Positions 13,059-22,705 of a stretch of 64,000 nt of DNA are shown one piece after another (the stretch's first letter is position 1; every line of letters starts with the position of its first letter). The notes under the pieces are model-generated. The model was not told the origin of the DNA and did not search any database. It worked only from the letters and a program-made list of their open reading frames with translations. The DNA comes from Alphaproteobacteria bacterium (GTDB lineage Bacteria > Pseudomonadota > Alphaproteobacteria > SP197): contig OZ243917.1 of NCBI GenBank assembly GCA_965213815.1, positions 1,694,385 to 1,758,384 on the forward strand. The letters run 5' to 3'. Made by a program: the position numbers and the translations under genes.

Positions 13059-15101
13059 GTGCCCATTCCCGGCGGAGGCAGGAGTAGCGACACACTGGCA
13101 CCCTCCGTCGCGTGGTTCCGGATCATCGTGGACCCGACCGGTGAAGGGGTGCTGGCAGGACTGTTCGAAGCGACGCCGGAAGGCGAGCCCCTGGGGTTCA
13201 GCTTCGCCCGGGTATCGCGCCACGAGGGCGACTGGAACGACCTCATGGTGTCCCTGTGTCATGCCCTCTTCGGGGCCACCGCCACCATTCCTTCGCTGCT
13301 CATCGTCTCCTCGGAGGACGGACCGCCCATCTTCCTTGATGACCTCGGTCTTGCCATACCCTGTTGCTGGATCGTGCCTCCGGAGTGCCGCGTCAGCCGT
13401 GAAAATGGATGGCTGCAGTGGGTGACGGATCCGCCGGGCATTCCCTCTCTTGCCGACACGCTCCTGGGCGACATCGCGGACGGGGACGAACCGTTCGAGC
13501 CTCTGGAGAGGGTGACGAAGGCTCTCCTGGAAGCCTATGGAGATATCCGGATCGAGGCCACTGGCAGTATCGAGGGCATGGTTGCGATGATGTCCCTGAC
13601 GCCCCGTGCCATCGAGAGCTGGAGAGAGATGTTCCGTCAGCGGGGCGCTGCCACCATGTCGTCGGCTCCGGAGACGCCACAGGCGCATGGCCTGGCCGAG
13701 AGACTGTGGATGGTGCTGTCTCAAAGGGCCGGGTCCGCTTCCGGTCTCCCTGAAGGCGGACTGGCGTGGTCCGGTGATCTGATGCCATTCCAGCGTGCCG
13801 GCGTCGAGGCCCTGATCACGACGGACCGGTTGCTGCTGTCGGATGACATGGGTCTGGGCAAGACCATCCAGGCCATCGCGGCATTGAGAGTCCTCAAGGC
13901 GAAGGGAGATATCAGGTCGTCTCTCGTGGTCGCTCCGGCGGGCGTTCTGGACCAGTGGCGGCGGGAGATCGAACGCTGGGCGCCGGAGTTGAGTGCCATC
14001 ATCGTGCGTGGCTCGGCCGACGACCGGATATGGCAGTGGCGGGCACGCAAGGATGTTCTTCTCGTCAGTTACGATGTGCTACGCATGGATGCAGATGTCC
14101 TTCGTGATCTTGGACCGGTTCGAAGGACCTGGGATGTGGTGATTCTCGACGAAGCCCAGAAGATCAAGAATCGCAACCCGACGAGTGATGCGGCCAAGGA
14201 TCTGCCCAGAGTACGGTCATGGGCGCTGACGGGCACACCCATCGAGAACAACGAGGATGAGCTGGCTTCGATCCTGGAGTTTGTCGATCACGAGGTTCGT
14301 CTTCGTCCGGGCGCGTCGTTGTTGAAGCGCCACAGCGAACTCCAGCTGCGGCGCCGCAAGGCGGATGTGCTCGATGACCTTCCGCCGAAGCTGGAGACCA
14401 GGATCAGGATCCCGCTCGGGCCCCAGCAGAGAAAGAGCTATGATCAGGCCGAAAGCGAAGGTGTCGTCTTCCTGAGATCGCTGGGCCACGAGGTGACGAT
14501 CCGGCACATTCTGGAACTGCTCACGCGCCTCAAGCAGATCTGCAATGCTGATCCCAGGACGGGAGCCTCCAGCAAACTCGACGACATCCATGACAAGATG
14601 CTGAAGCTGACCGCCCAGGGTCACAAGGCGCTGATCTTCTCGCAGTACACAAACGATGTCTCGGGCGTGGCCGCCGCGGCGCAACGCCTGCACGAGTTTC
14701 AGCCACTCTGCCTGACAGGAACCATGCCGATTGACCAACGCACCGAGATCATCGAGACCTTCAGGGCGAGCGAGCGGCACAAGGCGCTCATCATTTCGTT
14801 GCGGGCCGGAGGCCTTGGTCTCAACCTGCAGGAAGCATCCTACGTGTTCCATCTCGACCGCTGGTGGAATCCCGCCGTGGAACGCCAGGCCGAGGACAGG
14901 AGCCATCGCATGGGACAGACGGTCAAGGTCAATGTGATCAAGTACACGTGCGAGGACACGATCGAGGAGCGTATCGACACCATCCTCCAGCAAAAGCAGG
15001 CCCTGTTCGACGATCTGATCGATGACGTATCCCTCGATCTGTCGACACGCCTCAATCGTGCAGAGCTCATGGGCCTCTTCGGTCTCGACGAGGCCGGCTG
15101 A
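13059..15101 (+). CDS. SNF2-family helicase with uncharacterised N-terminal domain
   Basis: DDMGLGKT, DEAQ, LTGTPIEN, LIFSQY, SLRAGGLGLNL, DRWWNPAVERQAEDRSHRMGQ. Confidence 0.92.
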   Translation: MPIPGGGRSSDTLAPSVAWFRIIVDPTGEGVLAGLFEATPEGEPLGFSFARVSRHEGDWNDLMVSLCHALFGATATIPSLLIVSSEDGPPIFLDDLGLAIPCCWIVPPECRVSRENGWLQWVTDPPGIPSLADTLLGDIADGDEPFEPLERVTKALLEAYGDIRIEATGSIEGMVAMMSLTPRAIESWREMFRQRGAATMSSAPETPQAHGLAERLWMVLSQRAGSASGLPEGGLAWSGDLMPFQRAGVEALITTDRLLLSDDMGLGKTIQAIAALRVLKAKGDIRSSLVVAPAGVLDQWRREIERWAPELSAIIVRGSADDRIWQWRARKDVLLVSYDVLRMDADVLRDLGPVRRTWDVVILDEAQKIKNRNPTSDAAKDLPRVRSWALTGTPIENNEDELASILEFVDHEVRLRPGASLLKRHSELQLRRRKADVLDDLPPKLETRIRIPLGPQQRKSYDQAESEGVVFLRSLGHEVTIRHILELLTRLKQICNADPRTGASSKLDDIHDKMLKLTAQGHKALIFSQYTNDVSGVAAAAQRLHEFQPLCLTGTMPIDQRTEIIETFRASERHKALIISLRAGGLGLNLQEASYVFHLDRWWNPAVERQAEDRSHRMGQTVKVNVIKYTCEDTIEERIDTILQQKQALFDDLIDDVSLDLSTRLNRAELMGLFGLDEAG

Positions 15102-16302: not shown

Positions 16303-16758
16303 TTGTGTGTCACGGGACGGCTGTTCTCATGCAAGTGGTGCCGCAAACAGGTGGTGATCTGCCGATCGTGCGAGAGGCGCCAGGAGTATTGCGGCAGGTC
16401 CTGCAGCGGGCAGGGCCGGCGGGAGCGCCGGCGGACTGCGAACCGCCAGTATGCGGCAACGCCAAGGGGCCGCGAGAACAACCGTAAGCGGCAGCGTCGC
16501 TGGCGTCTTCGTCGCGTGGACAGGGAGCGTGCGGCGGCCCTTGAGGTGGCGGTTGCACCGACTCCCTGGGACGCCCCCGGGGACGACTTGTCCCCGGTGT
16601 TGGCGCGGGCCCGGGAAAAAACCGTAACGGACCACACTTACGGAACGTCGCGGCGTCCCCTTATGTGGGGGTCGACGGCGTTCGCCGGGCGTGCATCGCG
16701 GCTTCGATGCGCCGGTTGCGGGCGGGTCTGCACCCACCTTGAGGTGCGCGAGGCCTGA
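16303..16758 (+). CDS. Cys/Arg-rich hypothetical protein upstream of istA
   Basis: LFSCKWCRKQVVICRSCERRQEYCGRSCS; 35 bp upstream of istA. Confidence 0.55.
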   Translation: MCVTGRLFSCKWCRKQVVICRSCERRQEYCGRSCSGQGRRERRRTANRQYAATPRGRENNRKRQRRWRLRRVDRERAAALEVAVAPTPWDAPGDDLSPVLARAREKTVTDHTYGTSRRPLMWGSTAFAGRASRLRCAGCGRVCTHLEVREA

Positions 16759-16793
16759 CGGCGCCGGGAACGGGACGGAAAGGGGTCCAGCAG

Positions 16794-17354
16794 ATGGCGA
16801 TCGACGAGGAGACGCGGGCGACGATTGTGCGGCTGTCACGGGCCGAGGGGTGGCCGGTGGGCACCATTGCGCGGTACTGCGGCGTTCATCACAGCACGGT
16901 GACGCGGGCCTTGCGGGGCGCCGGGCAGGAGCCCCGGCACCGTGCGAAGCTCATCGACCCCTTTGTTCCCTACATCGAGAAGCGGCTCGAGAAGGCCCCC
17001 GATCTGGCGGCCAGCACGCTTTACGGGCAGGTCTCCGCACGGGGCTATCGCGGCGGGCCCGACCACTTCCGTCACAGTCTGCGGGATCTCGGCCTGAGGC
17101 CCGTCAAGCGGCCCGAGCCGGCGATGCGGATGCGCTTTCTTGCCGGCGAACAGGCCCAGGTCGACTGGGCCGACTTCGGGCGTGTCCGGATCGGCCGCGC
17201 CAAGCACAAGCTGATGGGGCTTCTCGTGACCCTGGCCTACTCCCGCCAGACCCATCTGAGCCTGTTCTACAACGCCCGGATGAGCAGCTTCCTGCAGGGC
17301 CATGTAGAAGCCTTCGAAGCCTTCGGTGGTGTGCCGCGCATCCTGCTCATCGAT
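16794..17354 (+). pseudogene. istA: IS21 transposase IstA, 5' fragment
   Basis: N-terminal HTH, GEQAQVDWAD, FGGVPRILLID then homology stops. Confidence 0.85.
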
Positions 17355-17376
17355 GATGTTCCCGGGAACATCATCG
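17351..17376. repeat. Perfect 26-bp palindrome at the junction of two istA fragments
   Basis: CGATGATGTTCCCGGGAACATCATCG equals its own reverse complement. Confidence 0.95.
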
Positions 17377-17999
17377 CAAACCACGACGTGTGGAACTGAA
17401 CCCATGTCTTCGAAGCAACGCACGTGCGAGGCACACCAGTCCTCGACCTTCTGGGTCAGTGTTGCCTCGATGTAGAGCCGTCCCGACACCCCCATCGCGG
17501 CCACGAACACCTGTGTGGCGTGCGTCTTGCCGTCGGCAGTGAGCAGCGGCACGGTCATGCCGGCGTAGTCAACAAACAGACGCTCGCCGGGTGAGCGGTT
17601 CTGGCGCATCGTCACATCCTGTCGCGACCGCGCTTCCCGGAACCGTCGGCACCATGTCGGATAGCTCATCGCGTCGGGGTTCGTGTCCCGCCATTCCTCC
17701 CACAACACGAACAGCGTCATGCCGCGACCAGCAAGGTCCTTCTCGACCTGCGCCCAGTCCACGTCACTCCCCGACACATCCTGCTTCGGTGGATAGAGCG
17801 CCGCCTCCAACGCCTCGTCGTCCGGGTCACGGGCCTGCGGCCAGCTCAGGCCCGACGCCGCAAACCGCGTCAGCGTCTGCGCCACCGAGCGCCGCGCCAT
17901 CGCGCAGTGCCGCGCAATGAAACGACCGCTGCGCCCCTCCTCAAAGTGAAACGACAGAACCTTCTTCACCTGCCTCATCGGTAGTCTCTCCTGTGCCAT
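17373..17999 (-). pseudogene. istA: Second IS21 transposase IstA, 5' fragment
   Basis: MRQVKKVL, WEEWR, PGERLFVDYAG, FVAAMGVSG, VPHVVVCD then homology stops. Confidence 0.88.
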
Positions 18000-18078
18000 C
18001 CCGCACCCCCTGGATCCATCGCGACAATCCAGACGGCAAAACGGCTCCTCGGGTCGAACAAAAACGTTCGCTCCAGGG

Positions 18079-18148
18079 GGTGGCTACCATGGTGAGAACA
18101 GGTGGCTACCATCGTGAGAATCGGTGGCTACCATCGTGAGATTACGCA
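18079..18148 (-). repeat. IS21 left end with three 22-bp-period transposase-binding repeats
   Basis: GGTGGCTACCAT(G/C)GTGAGA(A/T) at 18079, 18101 and 18123; terminal TG on the minus strand at 18148. Confidence 0.85.
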
Positions 18149-18152
18149 GTGG

Positions 18153-18719
18153 TTACGCGAGCGCCTGGCGGATGCAGCGCGTCATGGCGGCGTGATCGCC
18201 CGCATTGGAGCGGCGCGAGGCGTCCAGCCAAGCGGCGCGATTGATGCGCGTGAGGTCGATGGCGTGGCCAGCGAGCGCGGCAAGCTGCTTCAAGTACTGG
18301 AGCTGCGTGCGACCGTTGCCCTCGCGGAATGGGTGAACGTGGTTGACGTCGCCCAGGACCGGACCCGCGCCCTCGGCAAACCCGTCCGGCCTCGATCCCC
18401 GGAAATACCCCGCCGCTGCGATACGGCGGTGAATGTCCGCCATGCCGGCCACAATGAACCGTCTCGGCTGGAATCGGCTCCCGCCCTTGGTGATTTCGAC
18501 GGTGCGAATTTCGCCCGCCCACCCATAGACGTCCTGGAACAGATGGCGGTGGATCGTCATCAGGTGGGCAAGATCGAAATCGCCCGCGGGCATGGGCTCG
18601 AGAAGGCGCTGGGCGACGAGCTCGCGCTCTGCCGCCTCCAGCGCCGGGGCGTCCCGGATGTCCAGCCTGTTGCGGAGAACGGTGTAGTCAGGCGGATAGC
18701 AGTAGTCGCGGTCGCTCAT
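18153..18719 (-). CDS. Fic domain protein (VbhT/FicT-like)
   Basis: YCYPP..VLRNRL, HPFREGNGRTQL; ATGA overlap with the upstream small gene. Confidence 0.9.
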   Translation of the reverse strand: MSDRDYCYPPDYTVLRNRLDIRDAPALEAAERELVAQRLLEPMPAGDFDLAHLMTIHRHLFQDVYGWAGEIRTVEITKGGSRFQPRRFIVAGMADIHRRIAAAGYFRGSRPDGFAEGAGPVLGDVNHVHPFREGNGRTQLQYLKQLAALAGHAIDLTRINRAAWLDASRRSNAGDHAAMTRCIRQALA

Positions 18720-18937
18720 TCCGCCGCGGCGACGCGACTGCGGTCCTCGATCCGACAGAGGATATGGGCGCGGCGACGCTCGGGCGACCATCCCTCGCGC
18801 TCGAACATCTCGAACATGGTGATCTCTTCCGCCGTCAGGGGATTGCCCTCGATCGCCTGCAAATGCGCGGCTTCGGCCAACAGCCGATCCGTGGCGACAC
18901 TCTCGACGGTACCGGAATCATGCGGCTTCCCGGACAT
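18716..18937 (-). CDS. VbhA-like antitoxin
   Basis: 73 aa, HLQAIEGNPL motif, translationally coupled to fic. Confidence 0.75.
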   Translation of the reverse strand: MSGKPHDSGTVESVATDRLLAEAAHLQAIEGNPLTAEEITMFEMFEREGWSPERRRAHILCRIEDRSRVAAAE

Positions 18938-19802: not shown

Positions 19803-21023
19803 ATGCACGGCACACTAAATGTTCACCGGGTTTTCATGGGCAGCCAGACGCGCCGCGGATACCTGGCTGCCCTGGGCCTGAAGGATGAACGGGCGGAATC
19901 GCTTCGCGAGGCCCGCGACCGAATTCGGAAACGGCTGCGGGAGGAGATGCCCGATTGGAACAGCGATGCGAAAGCGCGAAGCCTGGTTGAGTATCATTAC
20001 GTCGCGCTGGCGTTGCGGATGCCGAAGCTGAGTCCGAAATTCCGCATGCAGGGAAGCAGCGTTTACCACACGCTGAACTTCCCGGCCCACCTGCCGCCGC
20101 AGGAAGTGGACTTTGATGACGGCGTATTCCTGCCGACGTCTTTCGTCAACGGGGGCGGTTCCAACCGTCCGGTGGTGGCCTCCAGGGGCTATTTTGCGAT
20201 GGTCGAGGAGATTCTCGGGCCATTGTGTGCGGAGCGTGGCTGGGAACTCGACACGAGCAAGTCGAGTTGCGTCAGGGTCAGGATCGACGCGGAGGCGCAT
20301 GTCGATCTGGCGCTGTATGCCATCCCCGATGAAGAATTCACGAAATTGGCGGAAGCAAGGGCCTTGGCCATGGTGGCCAGGGGGCAAGGCGCGTCGGAAC
20401 TCGATTACGAACTCGCCGACGAAGTCTATAAGAGCCTGCTCGAAAAGCAGATCATGCTTGCGCACCGCGACAGCGGCTGGATTGAGTCGGACCCTCGCGA
20501 GATCGAAAACTGGTTTCTCGATGCCATCGCGGATCATGGCGAAGTGGTTCGGAGAATTTGCCGGTACCTCAAGGGCTGGCGCGATTTCCAGTGGATGCGG
20601 GGCGGGCCATCCTCGATCACGCTGATGGCGTGCGTGATTTCGGTATACGACGAGTTGAACGGCATGCTGCCGGAGAACCGTGACGATCTGGCTCTTCAGG
20701 CCGTGGCGGACCGGCTGGAAGCCTTGTTCTCGCACGCCATCCTCAATCCGGTGCTGCCGGATCAACAGTTGGACGAGAACTGGTCAGCTGAAGAACGGTT
20801 GGATTTCAAAGCGCGCGCGCGAGGGCTGAAGACGAAGATCAACACGGTGCTGAACCGGACCTTTCACAAGGCGGTCGCGATCGCGGAGCTGCGGGAGGGA
20901 TTCGGGGTGCGGATTCCGAACGACGAACTGCTGATCGACGTCGAGTCGGAGGAGCGCAGGGTGCGGGCGTACGCGCCCGCTGTCGTTACCGCCCCGGCCG
21001 TGCCCCGAACCACGTCGGGATGA
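19803..21023 (+). CDS. CBASS CD-NTase, DncV/CdnA-like
   Basis: QGSSVYHTLNFP..QEVDFDDGVFLP and HVDLALYAIP parallel the DncV motifs QGS..TLN..EMDIDDG and HIDVPMYAIP. Confidence 0.9.
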   Translation: MHGTLNVHRVFMGSQTRRGYLAALGLKDERAESLREARDRIRKRLREEMPDWNSDAKARSLVEYHYVALALRMPKLSPKFRMQGSSVYHTLNFPAHLPPQEVDFDDGVFLPTSFVNGGGSNRPVVASRGYFAMVEEILGPLCAERGWELDTSKSSCVRVRIDAEAHVDLALYAIPDEEFTKLAEARALAMVARGQGASELDYELADEVYKSLLEKQIMLAHRDSGWIESDPREIENWFLDAIADHGEVVRRICRYLKGWRDFQWMRGGPSSITLMACVISVYDELNGMLPENRDDLALQAVADRLEALFSHAILNPVLPDQQLDENWSAEERLDFKARARGLKTKINTVLNRTFHKAVAIAELREGFGVRIPNDELLIDVESEERRVRAYAPAVVTAPAVPRTTSG

Positions 21024-22705
21024 GTGTCGAAGGCGAGCGCACAAGAGACCTGTTCCGAACGCTCGCGCACAAGGGGTTCAGGCGAGACCGCTCGCAGACG
21101 GGAACGCACCGCTTCACAGGCAAGCTGTCGGTGGTCGGGCGAGAGGTCGGGGTCGCGATCGAATTTCGCGATCTCGAATTCACGCGCCTTCCGAAGCTCA
21201 CGCTTCTCAACCCGGACGATGAAGCCCCGGAGGTCGTGGCGCATCTCGAAGCGTCGGGCGTCCTCTGCTTCGCCAGCGACGAAGACCTCGTTCTCGACCG
21301 CTACGATGTCGGCGGGACCGCGCTGATGTGCTTGGGACTGGCTCGTCGCGGCCTGGAACGGGCGCTGACGCACAAGCGTCTGCAGGGGGAAATCGCGCAG
21401 GAATTTCCGCAGCACTGGCTCGGGAAGAGTTTCTACTACGACAGTTCAGGAACGGAGCATGCTCGCGCGAGGCTCTACAGCGTGCCGCGCGACGGCTCGC
21501 CTGCGCTGTTGTTCTTGGCCGATACGGACGAGAAGCTGAAGCGGCTGGTTCCGGGCAAAGCGGACCGGGGCCGGATCGGCGGCTCGTCGCGGCCTGCATT
21601 CGTCTTTCATTCGGGCAATGAACTGACATTCATGCCGGGGTATCGTCAGCCAAGGACGCTTGCGGAGTTTCTCGCATGGCTGGAGACCATGGTGCCGGGC
21701 GGGACGGAAAGGGCGCTTGAAGAGTTGTCTTCCGGATTTCCGGATGCGCCGGTGCCGTTGTTCGTCAGGGCGGAGAACGGTTGTGTCGGCATCTCGGTAG
21801 GCGCCAAGGAGCCCGTGCTCAGGGGAGCGCAGCGGCGGCAAGGATTCAGGCGCATCGCACAGACCAATGCCCACAGGGTGAAGTTAGAACGGCACAGCGG
21901 TACGCGTATCGACCTGCCCTCGATTTTCGGCAGGAACATGCACAAGCAGTCGCCTCTGACCGGTCGGCGTATTGCGCTGATCGGGTGTGGAACCATCGGC
22001 AGTCACCTCGCGAAATTCCTCGTCCAAACCGGCGCCGGGCAAGAAGGAGGCGCGCTCCTGCTTGTCGACAACCAGTTGTTCGAGCCCGGCAATGTGGGAC
22101 GGCACTATCTTGGCACGGCTAGGATCGGCGAGTGGAAGGCGGAGGCTGTGAAACAGGAGTTGCAGCTTCAGTTCGCGGAAGCACATGTCCGGGCGGTTAG
22201 AGCGGATGCCGAAGGGATGATTGTGAGCCTCGCCAGCTACGACCTGGTCGTGGATGCAACCGGCGAAGAAGCTCTGTCCCTGGCGCTCAATCACGGTTTC
22301 ATAGCGCGTCGCAGGGAAGAGGAGCGCGTACCCGACGTCATCCATGTCTGGTTGTTCGGCAATGGGGCTGCCGGCCAGGCCCTGCTCGTGGACGGACCGC
22401 AATTTGCTTGCTTCAAATGCCTGAAGCCGGACCATGAGGGCCAATGGCGCTTCAATCCGCTGAAGTCCGGGACTACGGTCGAGCCGACGGCTGCGGCTTG
22501 CGGTGAAGCGCAGTACATCGCTTACGGAGTGGCGGCGCCGGCGATGGCAGCGGCGCTGGGGCTTCAACTCGTGCTGGACTGGAATGGCGGTAATCCGGGG
22601 CCGAGGCTGAGGACAGTCAGGGTTGAGAAAAAAGCTACAGTCGAAGTCAAGGACAGGAATCCGCAGCCGTCGGATCGTTGTCCGGCCTGCGCTGGCTCGC
22701 GGTAA
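21020..22705 (+). CDS. cap2: CBASS Cap2 (E2-E1/ThiF fusion)
   Basis: N-terminal E2-like HLEASGVLCF, GCGTIGS, CFKC, AACGE, CPAC; 4-bp overlap with the CD-NTase. Confidence 0.88.
   Translation: MSVEGERTRDLFRTLAHKGFRRDRSQTGTHRFTGKLSVVGREVGVAIEFRDLEFTRLPKLTLLNPDDEAPEVVAHLEASGVLCFASDEDLVLDRYDVGGTALMCLGLARRGLERALTHKRLQGEIAQEFPQHWLGKSFYYDSSGTEHARARLYSVPRDGSPALLFLADTDEKLKRLVPGKADRGRIGGSSRPAFVFHSGNELTFMPGYRQPRTLAEFLAWLETMVPGGTERALEELSSGFPDAPVPLFVRAENGCVGISVGAKEPVLRGAQRRQGFRRIAQTNAHRVKLERHSGTRIDLPSIFGRNMHKQSPLTGRRIALIGCGTIGSHLAKFLVQTGAGQEGGALLLVDNQLFEPGNVGRHYLGTARIGEWKAEAVKQELQLQFAEAHVRAVRADAEGMIVSLASYDLVVDATGEEALSLALNHGFIARRREEERVPDVIHVWLFGNGAAGQALLVDGPQFACFKCLKPDHEGQWRFNPLKSGTTVEPTAAACGEAQYIAYGVAAPAMAAALGLQLVLDWNGGNPGPRLRTVRVEKKATVEVKDRNPQPSDRCPACAGSR

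Follow-up and report, generated by a model that had tools for sequence, protein, structure and literature searches.

A palindrome joining two truncated IS21 transposase genes is very probably the scar of a recombinase-in-trio element

The locus described here lies in a 64,000-nt window of an alphaproteobacterial genome (contig OZ243917.1, positions 1,694,385 to 1,758,384 of the forward strand), in which two convergent istA 5′ halves meet at a 26-bp palindrome, CGATGATGTTCCCGGGAACATCATCG (window 17351-17376). The palindrome contains no mismatch. When the window was shuffled 100 times with dinucleotide composition preserved, no palindrome match appeared, with up to three mismatches allowed. The plus-strand arm (A) starts with the left end and 5′ untranslated part of an IS21 element (16589..16793). 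Its outer boundary is approximate: homology to intact A-type IS21 copies of a congener (G010, 81% identical at the nucleotide level) starts near 16579, and the sequence has a TGT-type end at about 16589. Next comes the 5′ part of istA-A (16794..17353, plus strand), encoding a helix-turn-helix (a match to Pfam HTH_23) and the first DDE Asp, and running to the GA of the second Asp codon. Its end overlaps the left 6-bp candidate crossover (coupling) sequence, CATCGA (17348..17353), which carries the allele of the recombinase-in-trio (RIT) element discussed below, whose own arms likewise read CATCGA. The 20-bp RIT palindrome TGATGTTCCC/GGGAACATCA (17354..17373) is a back-to-back pair of the 10-mer TKATGTKYCS, a motif defined after the data were seen. 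It is followed by the right 6-bp candidate crossover sequence, TCGCAA (17374..17379; TTGCGA on the minus strand), which is the native IS21-B allele, and by the 5′ part of istA-B up to its second DDE Asp codon (17374..17999, minus strand). IS21 'B' completes the locus with its left end and 5′ untranslated part (18000..18083, minus strand); homology to B′, a paralogue elsewhere in the genome that is 92-95% identical to istA-B, ends 720 bp from the palindrome centre.

The plus-strand open reading frame from 16794 ends in ...GVPRILLID followed by DVPGNII, and the minus-strand frame from 17999 ends in ...SVPHVVVCD followed by the same DVPGNII. Both arms match the NCBIfam model for IS21 family transposases, NF033546 (E values 3e-36 and 1.5e-33), from positions 2 (A) and 4 (B) to a common end point at position 182 of 294. 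The first DDE Asp is retained in each arm (QVDWADFG and LFVDYAGM), and the cut point is the second DDE Asp, where intact relatives continue with Asn-Leu-Lys (LLYDNLKSAV in those of istA-A). A preliminary description of this DNA had stated that two istA genes, ending LLID and VVCD, were both cut at the same catalytic Asp and linked by a perfect 26-bp palindrome, and the profile and shuffle results bear this out. It had further argued that the flanks do not form a simple fold-back; indeed, the arm proteins are 27% identical over 92 aligned residues, shared tail included, and the flanks are different genes, so the junction is not a fold-back. IS21 elements consist of a helix-turn-helix and DDE/rve core followed by istB, while the two arms cover at most positions 2-182 of 294 of the model and istB is absent from the window. 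Arms A and B are thus IS21 fragments rather than elements. The surroundings (window 13059-15101, 18153-18937 and 19803-22705), read from translations of open reading frames only, resemble a defence island. They include an SNF2-type helicase, a Fic-domain protein with a small partner frame upstream, and an operon of CD-NTase-like and E1/E2-like genes that, at the level of these translations, resembles CBASS.

The genome is complete, in one contig of 3.85 Mb, and contains the 18-bp core GATGTTCCCGGGAACATC five times (J1 to J5), each time at the same istA codon. J1 (1,633,288) joins the convergent istA 5′ halves B′ and C′, which differ from each other, and J2 is the window junction, with halves A and B and no RIT. 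J3 (1,965,191), J4 (2,015,589) and J5 (2,053,044) each place an istA 5′ half (C, D and C, respectively) next to a RIT. The 13 nt CGATGATGTTCCC are common to 10/10 arms, all five palindrome copies are identical, and three of them adjoin a RIT terminal repeat. The search proposed in the preliminary description, for CGATGATGTTCCC next to istA in this genome and related metagenome-assembled genomes (MAGs), recovered the RIT at J3, J4, J5 and elsewhere, and interrupted istA genes were found in the genome, in MAGs and on plasmids. When all IS21 pieces of the genome were inventoried, only two elements, C/E (J3, J5) and D (J4), proved to have kept an istA 3′ half and istB; for arms A, B, B′ and C′, neither was found. 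J1 and J2 are therefore deletion-type products.

The element at J3, J4 and J5 measures 3,483 bp from repeat to repeat, is 100% identical in its three copies and is bounded by perfect terminal inverted repeats (TIRs) of 83 bp. Between these lie three adjacent, co-oriented tyrosine recombinase genes encoding the putative RitA (451 aa), RitB (331 aa) and RitC (334 aa), whose ritA/ritB and ritB/ritC boundaries are 4-bp ATGA overlaps (L018 5016-5019 and 6008-6011). Pfam Phage_integrase spans positions 4-169, 9-169 and 2-169 of 172 in the three proteins, and the catalytic R...HxxR...Y set is complete in the translations (HTLRH...VYTKV, HCLRH...WYLSI and HTFRH...RYAEI). RitA has the long N-terminal extension that is expected of it (PMC8138268). 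In NCBIfam, the Rit proteins gave only Xer-like matches below the cut-off; the libraries have no RIT-specific model, and plasmid trios that match at 65-68% nucleotide identity carry integrase annotation only. The gene trio with short overlaps, the complete catalytic domains, the long TIRs, the length of ~3.5 kb and the palindrome at one end make this an ordinary member of the RIT family. An open reading frame that begins within the ritC-proximal end/TIR (L018 6994-8040) runs in frame into an istA 3′ half (MAEIAVKV...TSRATTHNIDNLKAGV...) and might give rise to a C-terminal IstA fragment.

In integrated form, the order is istA-N, 6-mer, 20-bp palindrome, 6-mer, RIT, 6-mer and CAAY-istA-C. The palindrome, T-GATGTTCCC.GGGAACATC-A, lies between one 6-mer (O) and another (O′), followed by TIR-ritA-ritB-ritC-TIR; the distal side consists of a 6-mer, CAAY (the Asn codon), the rest of istA, and istB. 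J4 reads ...TGG AT|C ATC GA|T GATGTTCCC GGGAACATC A|TCGATG|TTATGTGTCG...ritABC on the N side and CGACACATAA|CATCGA|C AAT CTC AAG (IDNLK) on the far side, continuing to the istA remainder and istB. The IstA reading at J4 is thus ...W-I-I-D, insert, (I-D)-N-L-K-A-G-V. The distal boundary at J3/J5 is CACATAA|TTGCGA|C AAC TTG (CDNLR). From these boundaries, RIT and palindrome sit at the second DDE Asp codon, directly 5′ of CAAY. The palindrome is on the istA-5′ side in every case, with the RIT body in either orientation: it adjoins the ritA end at J4 and the ritC end at J3/J5 and in L081, a metagenome contig with a RIT that is 97-99% identical and has the same layout (N side GTC AT|C ATC GA|T; C side CACATAA|CCATGA|C AAC CTC). 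RIT copies occupy two IS21 types in the genome, and the near-identical copy in L081 occupies a third, which points indirectly to mobility of the RIT as a unit. The preliminary description had imagined an unknown element that targets this istA position; targeting of the same codon is evident in three other IS21 copies, and the element is a known one, a RIT. Two copies of the 7,140-bp composite of IS21-C with palindrome and RIT, 100% identical and inverted relative to each other, lie ~86 kb apart (G000:C1:1959085-1966224, L020, and 2052028-2059167, L021). Their 5-bp direct repeats differ (GAGCG at J3, GCGAA at J5), and since each copy has its own repeat, the RIT-bearing IS21 has transposed as a unit with the RIT hitch-hiking. 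The IstAB needed to move this disrupted IS21 was presumably supplied in trans.

The same arrangement occurs in other genera. On Mesorhizobium loti p_1, the N side reads ...GTC TAC GA|T TACGTGCCCGGGCACGTA A|TCGAGC|TIR and the C side TIR|GCTCGA|C AAC CTT AAG, with a lineage-specific palindrome. On Paraburkholderia aromaticivorans pBN2, these are ...GTG TTC GA|T TTTGTTGCCGGGAACAAA A|TCGAGG|TIR and TIR|GCCCGA|C AAC CCC AAG, then istB, and a Rhizobium leguminosarum plasmid has the same istA/palindrome/RIT layout. The earlier suggestion of a transposon-targeting parasite hence stands, as a 3.5-kb three-recombinase element in IS21 copies of this and other genomes. Junctions in which a palindrome joins two istA 5′ halves were found in other samples as well (L138, L139 and P0024). 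L138 combines a D-like and a B-like arm with the centre CCGCGG. In L139 (ERZ25070917, a 5.8-kb contig), the same palindrome connects a C′-like arm with a D arm matching the genome's D at 100% identity over 400 bp; C′ and D sit at J1 and J4 here, and L139 could be a related strain or population variant. Palindrome read-through tails were present in 7 among the 120 truncated-IstA protein clusters listed. A metagenome scan for GATGATGTT-N6-AACATCATC yielded only two clearly relevant loci (L081 and L082) among 80 of 97 matches listed; the remaining matches listed were rejected as chance or as a conserved human-gut gene. A scan of genome contigs with RitB gave only two real relatives, L036 and L037. 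Neither IstA nor Rit lies near L048 (centre CCGCGG); L023 was discarded as a chance 2-mismatch match, there being no IstA present. Solo sites of the form CGAT-GATGTT-CCnnGG-AACATC-ATCG were seen in congeners (L025 in G013, L028 in G002 and L034 in G012). In L028 (...PRKLMYD|DVP) and L034 (...VPQVVVPD|DVP), one of the arms ends in what resembles decayed IstA. Such sites are probably older scars. More distant RITs, with RitC 31-42% identical, are located elsewhere and retain TIR, 6-mer, 20-bp palindrome and 6-mer at one end (G275: L146, L156, L162, L163; G222: L144, L155, L161; G047: L157). The G275 RIT adjoins an IS66 TnpB-like frame (GHVFVFRSKRGDYVKVLYWDGSGLCLYA), and different RIT lineages therefore target different IS families; these RITs outside IS21 are consistent with the published IS66, Tn6049-like and IS3 contexts.

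What, then, is the palindrome? Both halves (TGATGTTCCC) are variant forms of a 10-mer that occurs three times per 83-bp TIR: as TTATGTGTCG at the tip, as TGATGTGTCC, and inverted as TGATGTGCCC. The resemblance between half and tip co-varies across distant RIT lineages: TGATGTTCCC versus TTATGTTCCC in L082, TTACGTGCCC versus TTTTGTGTCC in L141, TTTTGTTGCC versus TTCTGTGCCC in L142, and ATATGTGACG versus ATATGTGTCG in G275, while in G047 the half, TTATGTAAAG, is identical to an inner TIR motif. Judged by this co-variation, the palindrome is probably a pair of recombinase-binding elements placed back to back. TIR tip, O and palindrome half would then make up one full core site, and the geometry fits: in TTATGTGTCG(reverse complement)-CATCGA-TGATGTTCCC, inverted 10-mers surround 6 bp.

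The 6-mers point to where strands may be exchanged. In the 78 bases nearest the centre, C (J3/J5) and C′ (J1) differ only at positions 14-16, a switch from TTG(CGA) to CAT(CGA), and B (J2) and B′ (J1) show the identical switch; together, the two pairs give two breakpoints, 6 bp apart. CATCGA is the 6-mer on the RIT's own arms, and TTGCGA is taken as native because it recurs at the J3/J5 distal junction. Intact A-type IS21 elements of congeners read CTG CTC TAC GAC AAT, with CTACGA at the 6-mer, so the 6-mer in the A arm of the window (CTC ATC GAT) is that of the element; the B arm retains its native one. Across insertions, either allele is found on the N side and on the C side: in J5 and L081 the N-side 6-mer matches the element and the C-side 6-mer the target, and L141 has the reverse. 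From the 6-bp spacing of the breakpoints with either allele, we infer that a tyrosine recombinase makes a staggered exchange over an overlap of 6 bp that may be heterologous. The preliminary description had likened the 10-6-10 geometry of the palindrome to a tyrosine-recombinase site. The site type agrees with these data, with the crossover placed in the flanking 6-mers rather than in the central CCCGGG; since the centre varies (CCCGGG, CCGCGG, TCGCGG), exchange there may occur too.

Taken together, the palindrome is very probably a portable attachment-site module of the RIT element that was left as a scar at J2. In the mechanism we propose, Rit tyrosine recombinases would exchange strands across the 6-bp O, directly 5′ of CAAY in x-Asp-Asn codons, and would tolerate heterology in O, as for Tn554, SE and Tn916. 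Each O would be flanked by 10-mer binding sites, the TIR tip on one side and a palindrome half on the other. The circular form TIR-O-palindrome-O-TIR, with a predicted junction of ...CACATAA-N6-TGATGTTCCCGGGAACATCA-N6-TTATGTG..., would be symmetric and could integrate via either O, which would explain why the RIT is found in both orientations with the palindrome constantly on the N side. J2 might have formed by recombination of the palindrome/TIR full site of an occupied IS21 with the same target in a second chromosomal IS21, or between two RIT-occupied IS21 copies. Attack on a second istA would join the palindrome to istA-N, with deletion or inversion as the outcome according to the relative orientation of the genes. 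By either route, the istA 5′ halves would be joined via the palindrome, and the loss would comprise the RIT, the 3′ halves of the two istA genes, both copies of istB and the intervening DNA.

The preliminary description had both copies invaded and a deletion following. J2 is a deletion product, and double insertion is only one possible route to it: a single RIT-occupied IS21 attacking an unoccupied istA accounts for J2 equally well, and the 6-mer alleles are compatible with both one-step and two-step routes. A direct precedent for recombination with an unoccupied site is L036, from an Alphaproteobacteria MAG (JAJDVH010000163.1; 2600-2700 and 5080-8600), whose RIT is 92-96% identical. Here, the partner of the palindrome/TIR site was a secondary site within an IS5-type transposase gene, and their recombination produced an inversion of which both reciprocal products are kept: IstA-N-palindrome-(NKPRGVPRVDD...) and (MGRYDLMDFEWRVIEPLLP)-TIR-RIT-TIR-IstA-C. 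In RIT orientation, the secondary site reads CGGCAG|CAAC, with CAAC in common with the istA targets, and the palindrome centre is asymmetric (TCGCGG). Separate entry of a RIT into IS21-A and IS21-B, after which palindromes or elements recombined and the intervening DNA was deleted, is a sub-variant of the scar explanation that we regard as rather unlikely. Several IS21 types in one genome do carry a RIT, a perfect palindrome could synapse in either alignment, the TCGCGG centre of L036 could have arisen as a hybrid between two variants of the centre, and the element's 6-mer is on both arms of L138. This history nevertheless requires two insertions plus a third event; the L036 rearrangement used an unoccupied secondary site and has a reciprocal product without palindrome, and in both J1 and J2 one arm has kept its native 6-mer.

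It is far less probable that the 20-bp palindrome and its 6-mers act as an autonomous micro-element, which Rit mobilises in trans and which entered the istA copies by itself, and that the joins between istA 5′ halves are later and unrelated. The palindrome does resemble two terminal-repeat tips with nothing in between, and the solo palindromes of congeners have no match to Rit or IstA queries within 3-kb loci. Yet the genome's IS21 inventory and the truncated-IstA clusters hold no istA with the palindrome alone and contiguous halves, solo palindromes with readable arms all join non-contiguous DNA, and in at least four separate insertions (J4, J3/J5, L081, L141, L142) the palindrome lies between an istA 5′ half and a RIT. 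An artefact of assembly or library preparation (a chimeric palindrome join, a fold-back read, or a ClaI/SmaI adapter or linker) is hardly credible. Although palindromes provoke template switching and the core includes ATCGAT and CCCGGG, a one-contig genome has two junctions of this type, involving four different arms. Others, with lineage-specific palindromes, are present in independent assemblies from other samples and in finished plasmids of named species. The flanks belong to different genes and are not mutual reverse complements. Two narrower origins were rejected: a hairpin/P-nucleotide or replication fold-back, as the half-palindrome does not belong to native istA and the two flanks come from different genes, and a synthetic linker or adapter with ClaI and SmaI sites, given the co-varying, lineage-specific palindromes beside RITs in finished plasmids of other genera.

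RIT elements have been described since 2009 and were already seen inside transposase genes, namely an IS66 tnpA and a Tn6049-like tnpA (PMC3414803; PMC2864759, on the C. metallidurans CH34 genome). As here, they have three adjacent, overlapping tyrosine recombinase genes, ~3.5 kb, inverted repeats, a palindrome beside one end, and identical copies within a genome (PMC3414803, PMC2864759). Their target specificity and movement are entered as 'NT' in Table 1 of a 2023 review, and RIT transposition has been reproduced in no laboratory (PMC10214605). Whereas the published accounts consulted leave target, crossover and palindrome role open, the target here is the 6 bp that precede CAAY in the Asp-Asn codons of IS21 istA, where exchange would take place, and, unlike those accounts, we describe RIT-less palindrome scars that fuse two IS21 copies. 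We found no paper that pairs RIT with IS21, nor, in the literature searched, the exact istA target, the 6-bp exchange region, the paired-binding-element palindrome or IS21-fusing scars; Ricker et al. 2013, which is reportedly also about RIT elements, may hold them and may have noticed the IS21 pairing.

Other systems share parts of this organization. The mobile integrase cassette (MIC) of Bifidobacterium longum likewise has three contiguous integrases, an inverted repeat (96 bp in MIC) and a 20-bp palindrome, and lies between IS fragments (PMC2430713). In the published sequences, its palindrome half TTAAACCGAC resembles its repeat tip TTAAGCCGGG, and a deletion beside one MIC arose in laboratory passage (PMC2430713). 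It differs in its IS3-type host IS and in its sequences, and no target codon or mechanism was proposed for it (PMC2430713). Tn554, strand-biased circularizing integrative elements (SE) and Tn916 use a 6-bp coupling sequence that is brought from the donor flank and need not match the target; there is no true target duplication, and the junction 6-mer is the element's or the target's (PMC10214605), much as here. These elements differ in their proteins (IntA/Tfp/IntB/Srap or TnpA/B/C) and have neither a palindrome module nor a catalytic-codon target. The core sites of Xer/dif and Cre/loxP resemble the proposed site in having inverted recombinase-binding elements around an overlap of 6-8 bp, and symmetric sites permit both deletion and inversion; unlike them, the present system would have two sites that share back-to-back elements (10-6-10.10-6-10), and it encodes three different recombinases. 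IS4321 and IS5075 (IS1111 group) insert into the terminal repeats of Tn21-family transposons. Like these and homing endonucleases or introns, the RIT would use a target that is conserved in another mobile element or not freely changeable; they employ a DEDD transposase or a homing endonuclease, whereas the RIT hits DNA coding for a catalytic residue and not transposon ends.

RIT elements are widespread, and the loci collected here provide natural sets of attB, attL and attR for several IS21 types. They also suggest which 6 bp may be exchanged and which 10-bp motif may be bound, and they offer a role for the palindrome, which has long been noted. Together with the reciprocal products of L036, these sets suffice for designing a direct recombination assay. 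The loci also document nested parasitism, in which a RIT inactivates a transposon by entering the catalytic codon, is carried along by that transposon and leaves behind small palindromic scars; to annotators, such scars will look like head-to-head truncated transposase genes. We can tentatively extend this picture, to a reading that we hold to be possible rather than probable: the RIT clade may be a dedicated IS21 hyperparasite that homes to DNA encoding the catalytic Asp-Asn, rides on the disabled IS and carries a module that purges IS21, with other RITs acting likewise on IS66, IS3 and IS5. If so, an IS could escape only via synonymous changes or a change from DN to DQ, and the disabled IS would carry the RIT whenever mobilised in trans. 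The palindrome and 6-mer would then form a portable recombination hotspot that fuses or deletes IS21 copies, a natural IS-purging force.

The sole uninterrupted IS21-family element of the genome (G000:C1:367900-370800, L022) is inserted in a C-type istA fragment. Its IstA (...GGVPDELLFDQMRAVV) is encoded at this position by TTC GAC CAG ATG (F-D-Q-M), and since DQ replaces DN, its istA is without CAAY beside the RIT crossover site. As a single case, this intact element is suggestive with regard to RIT targeting.
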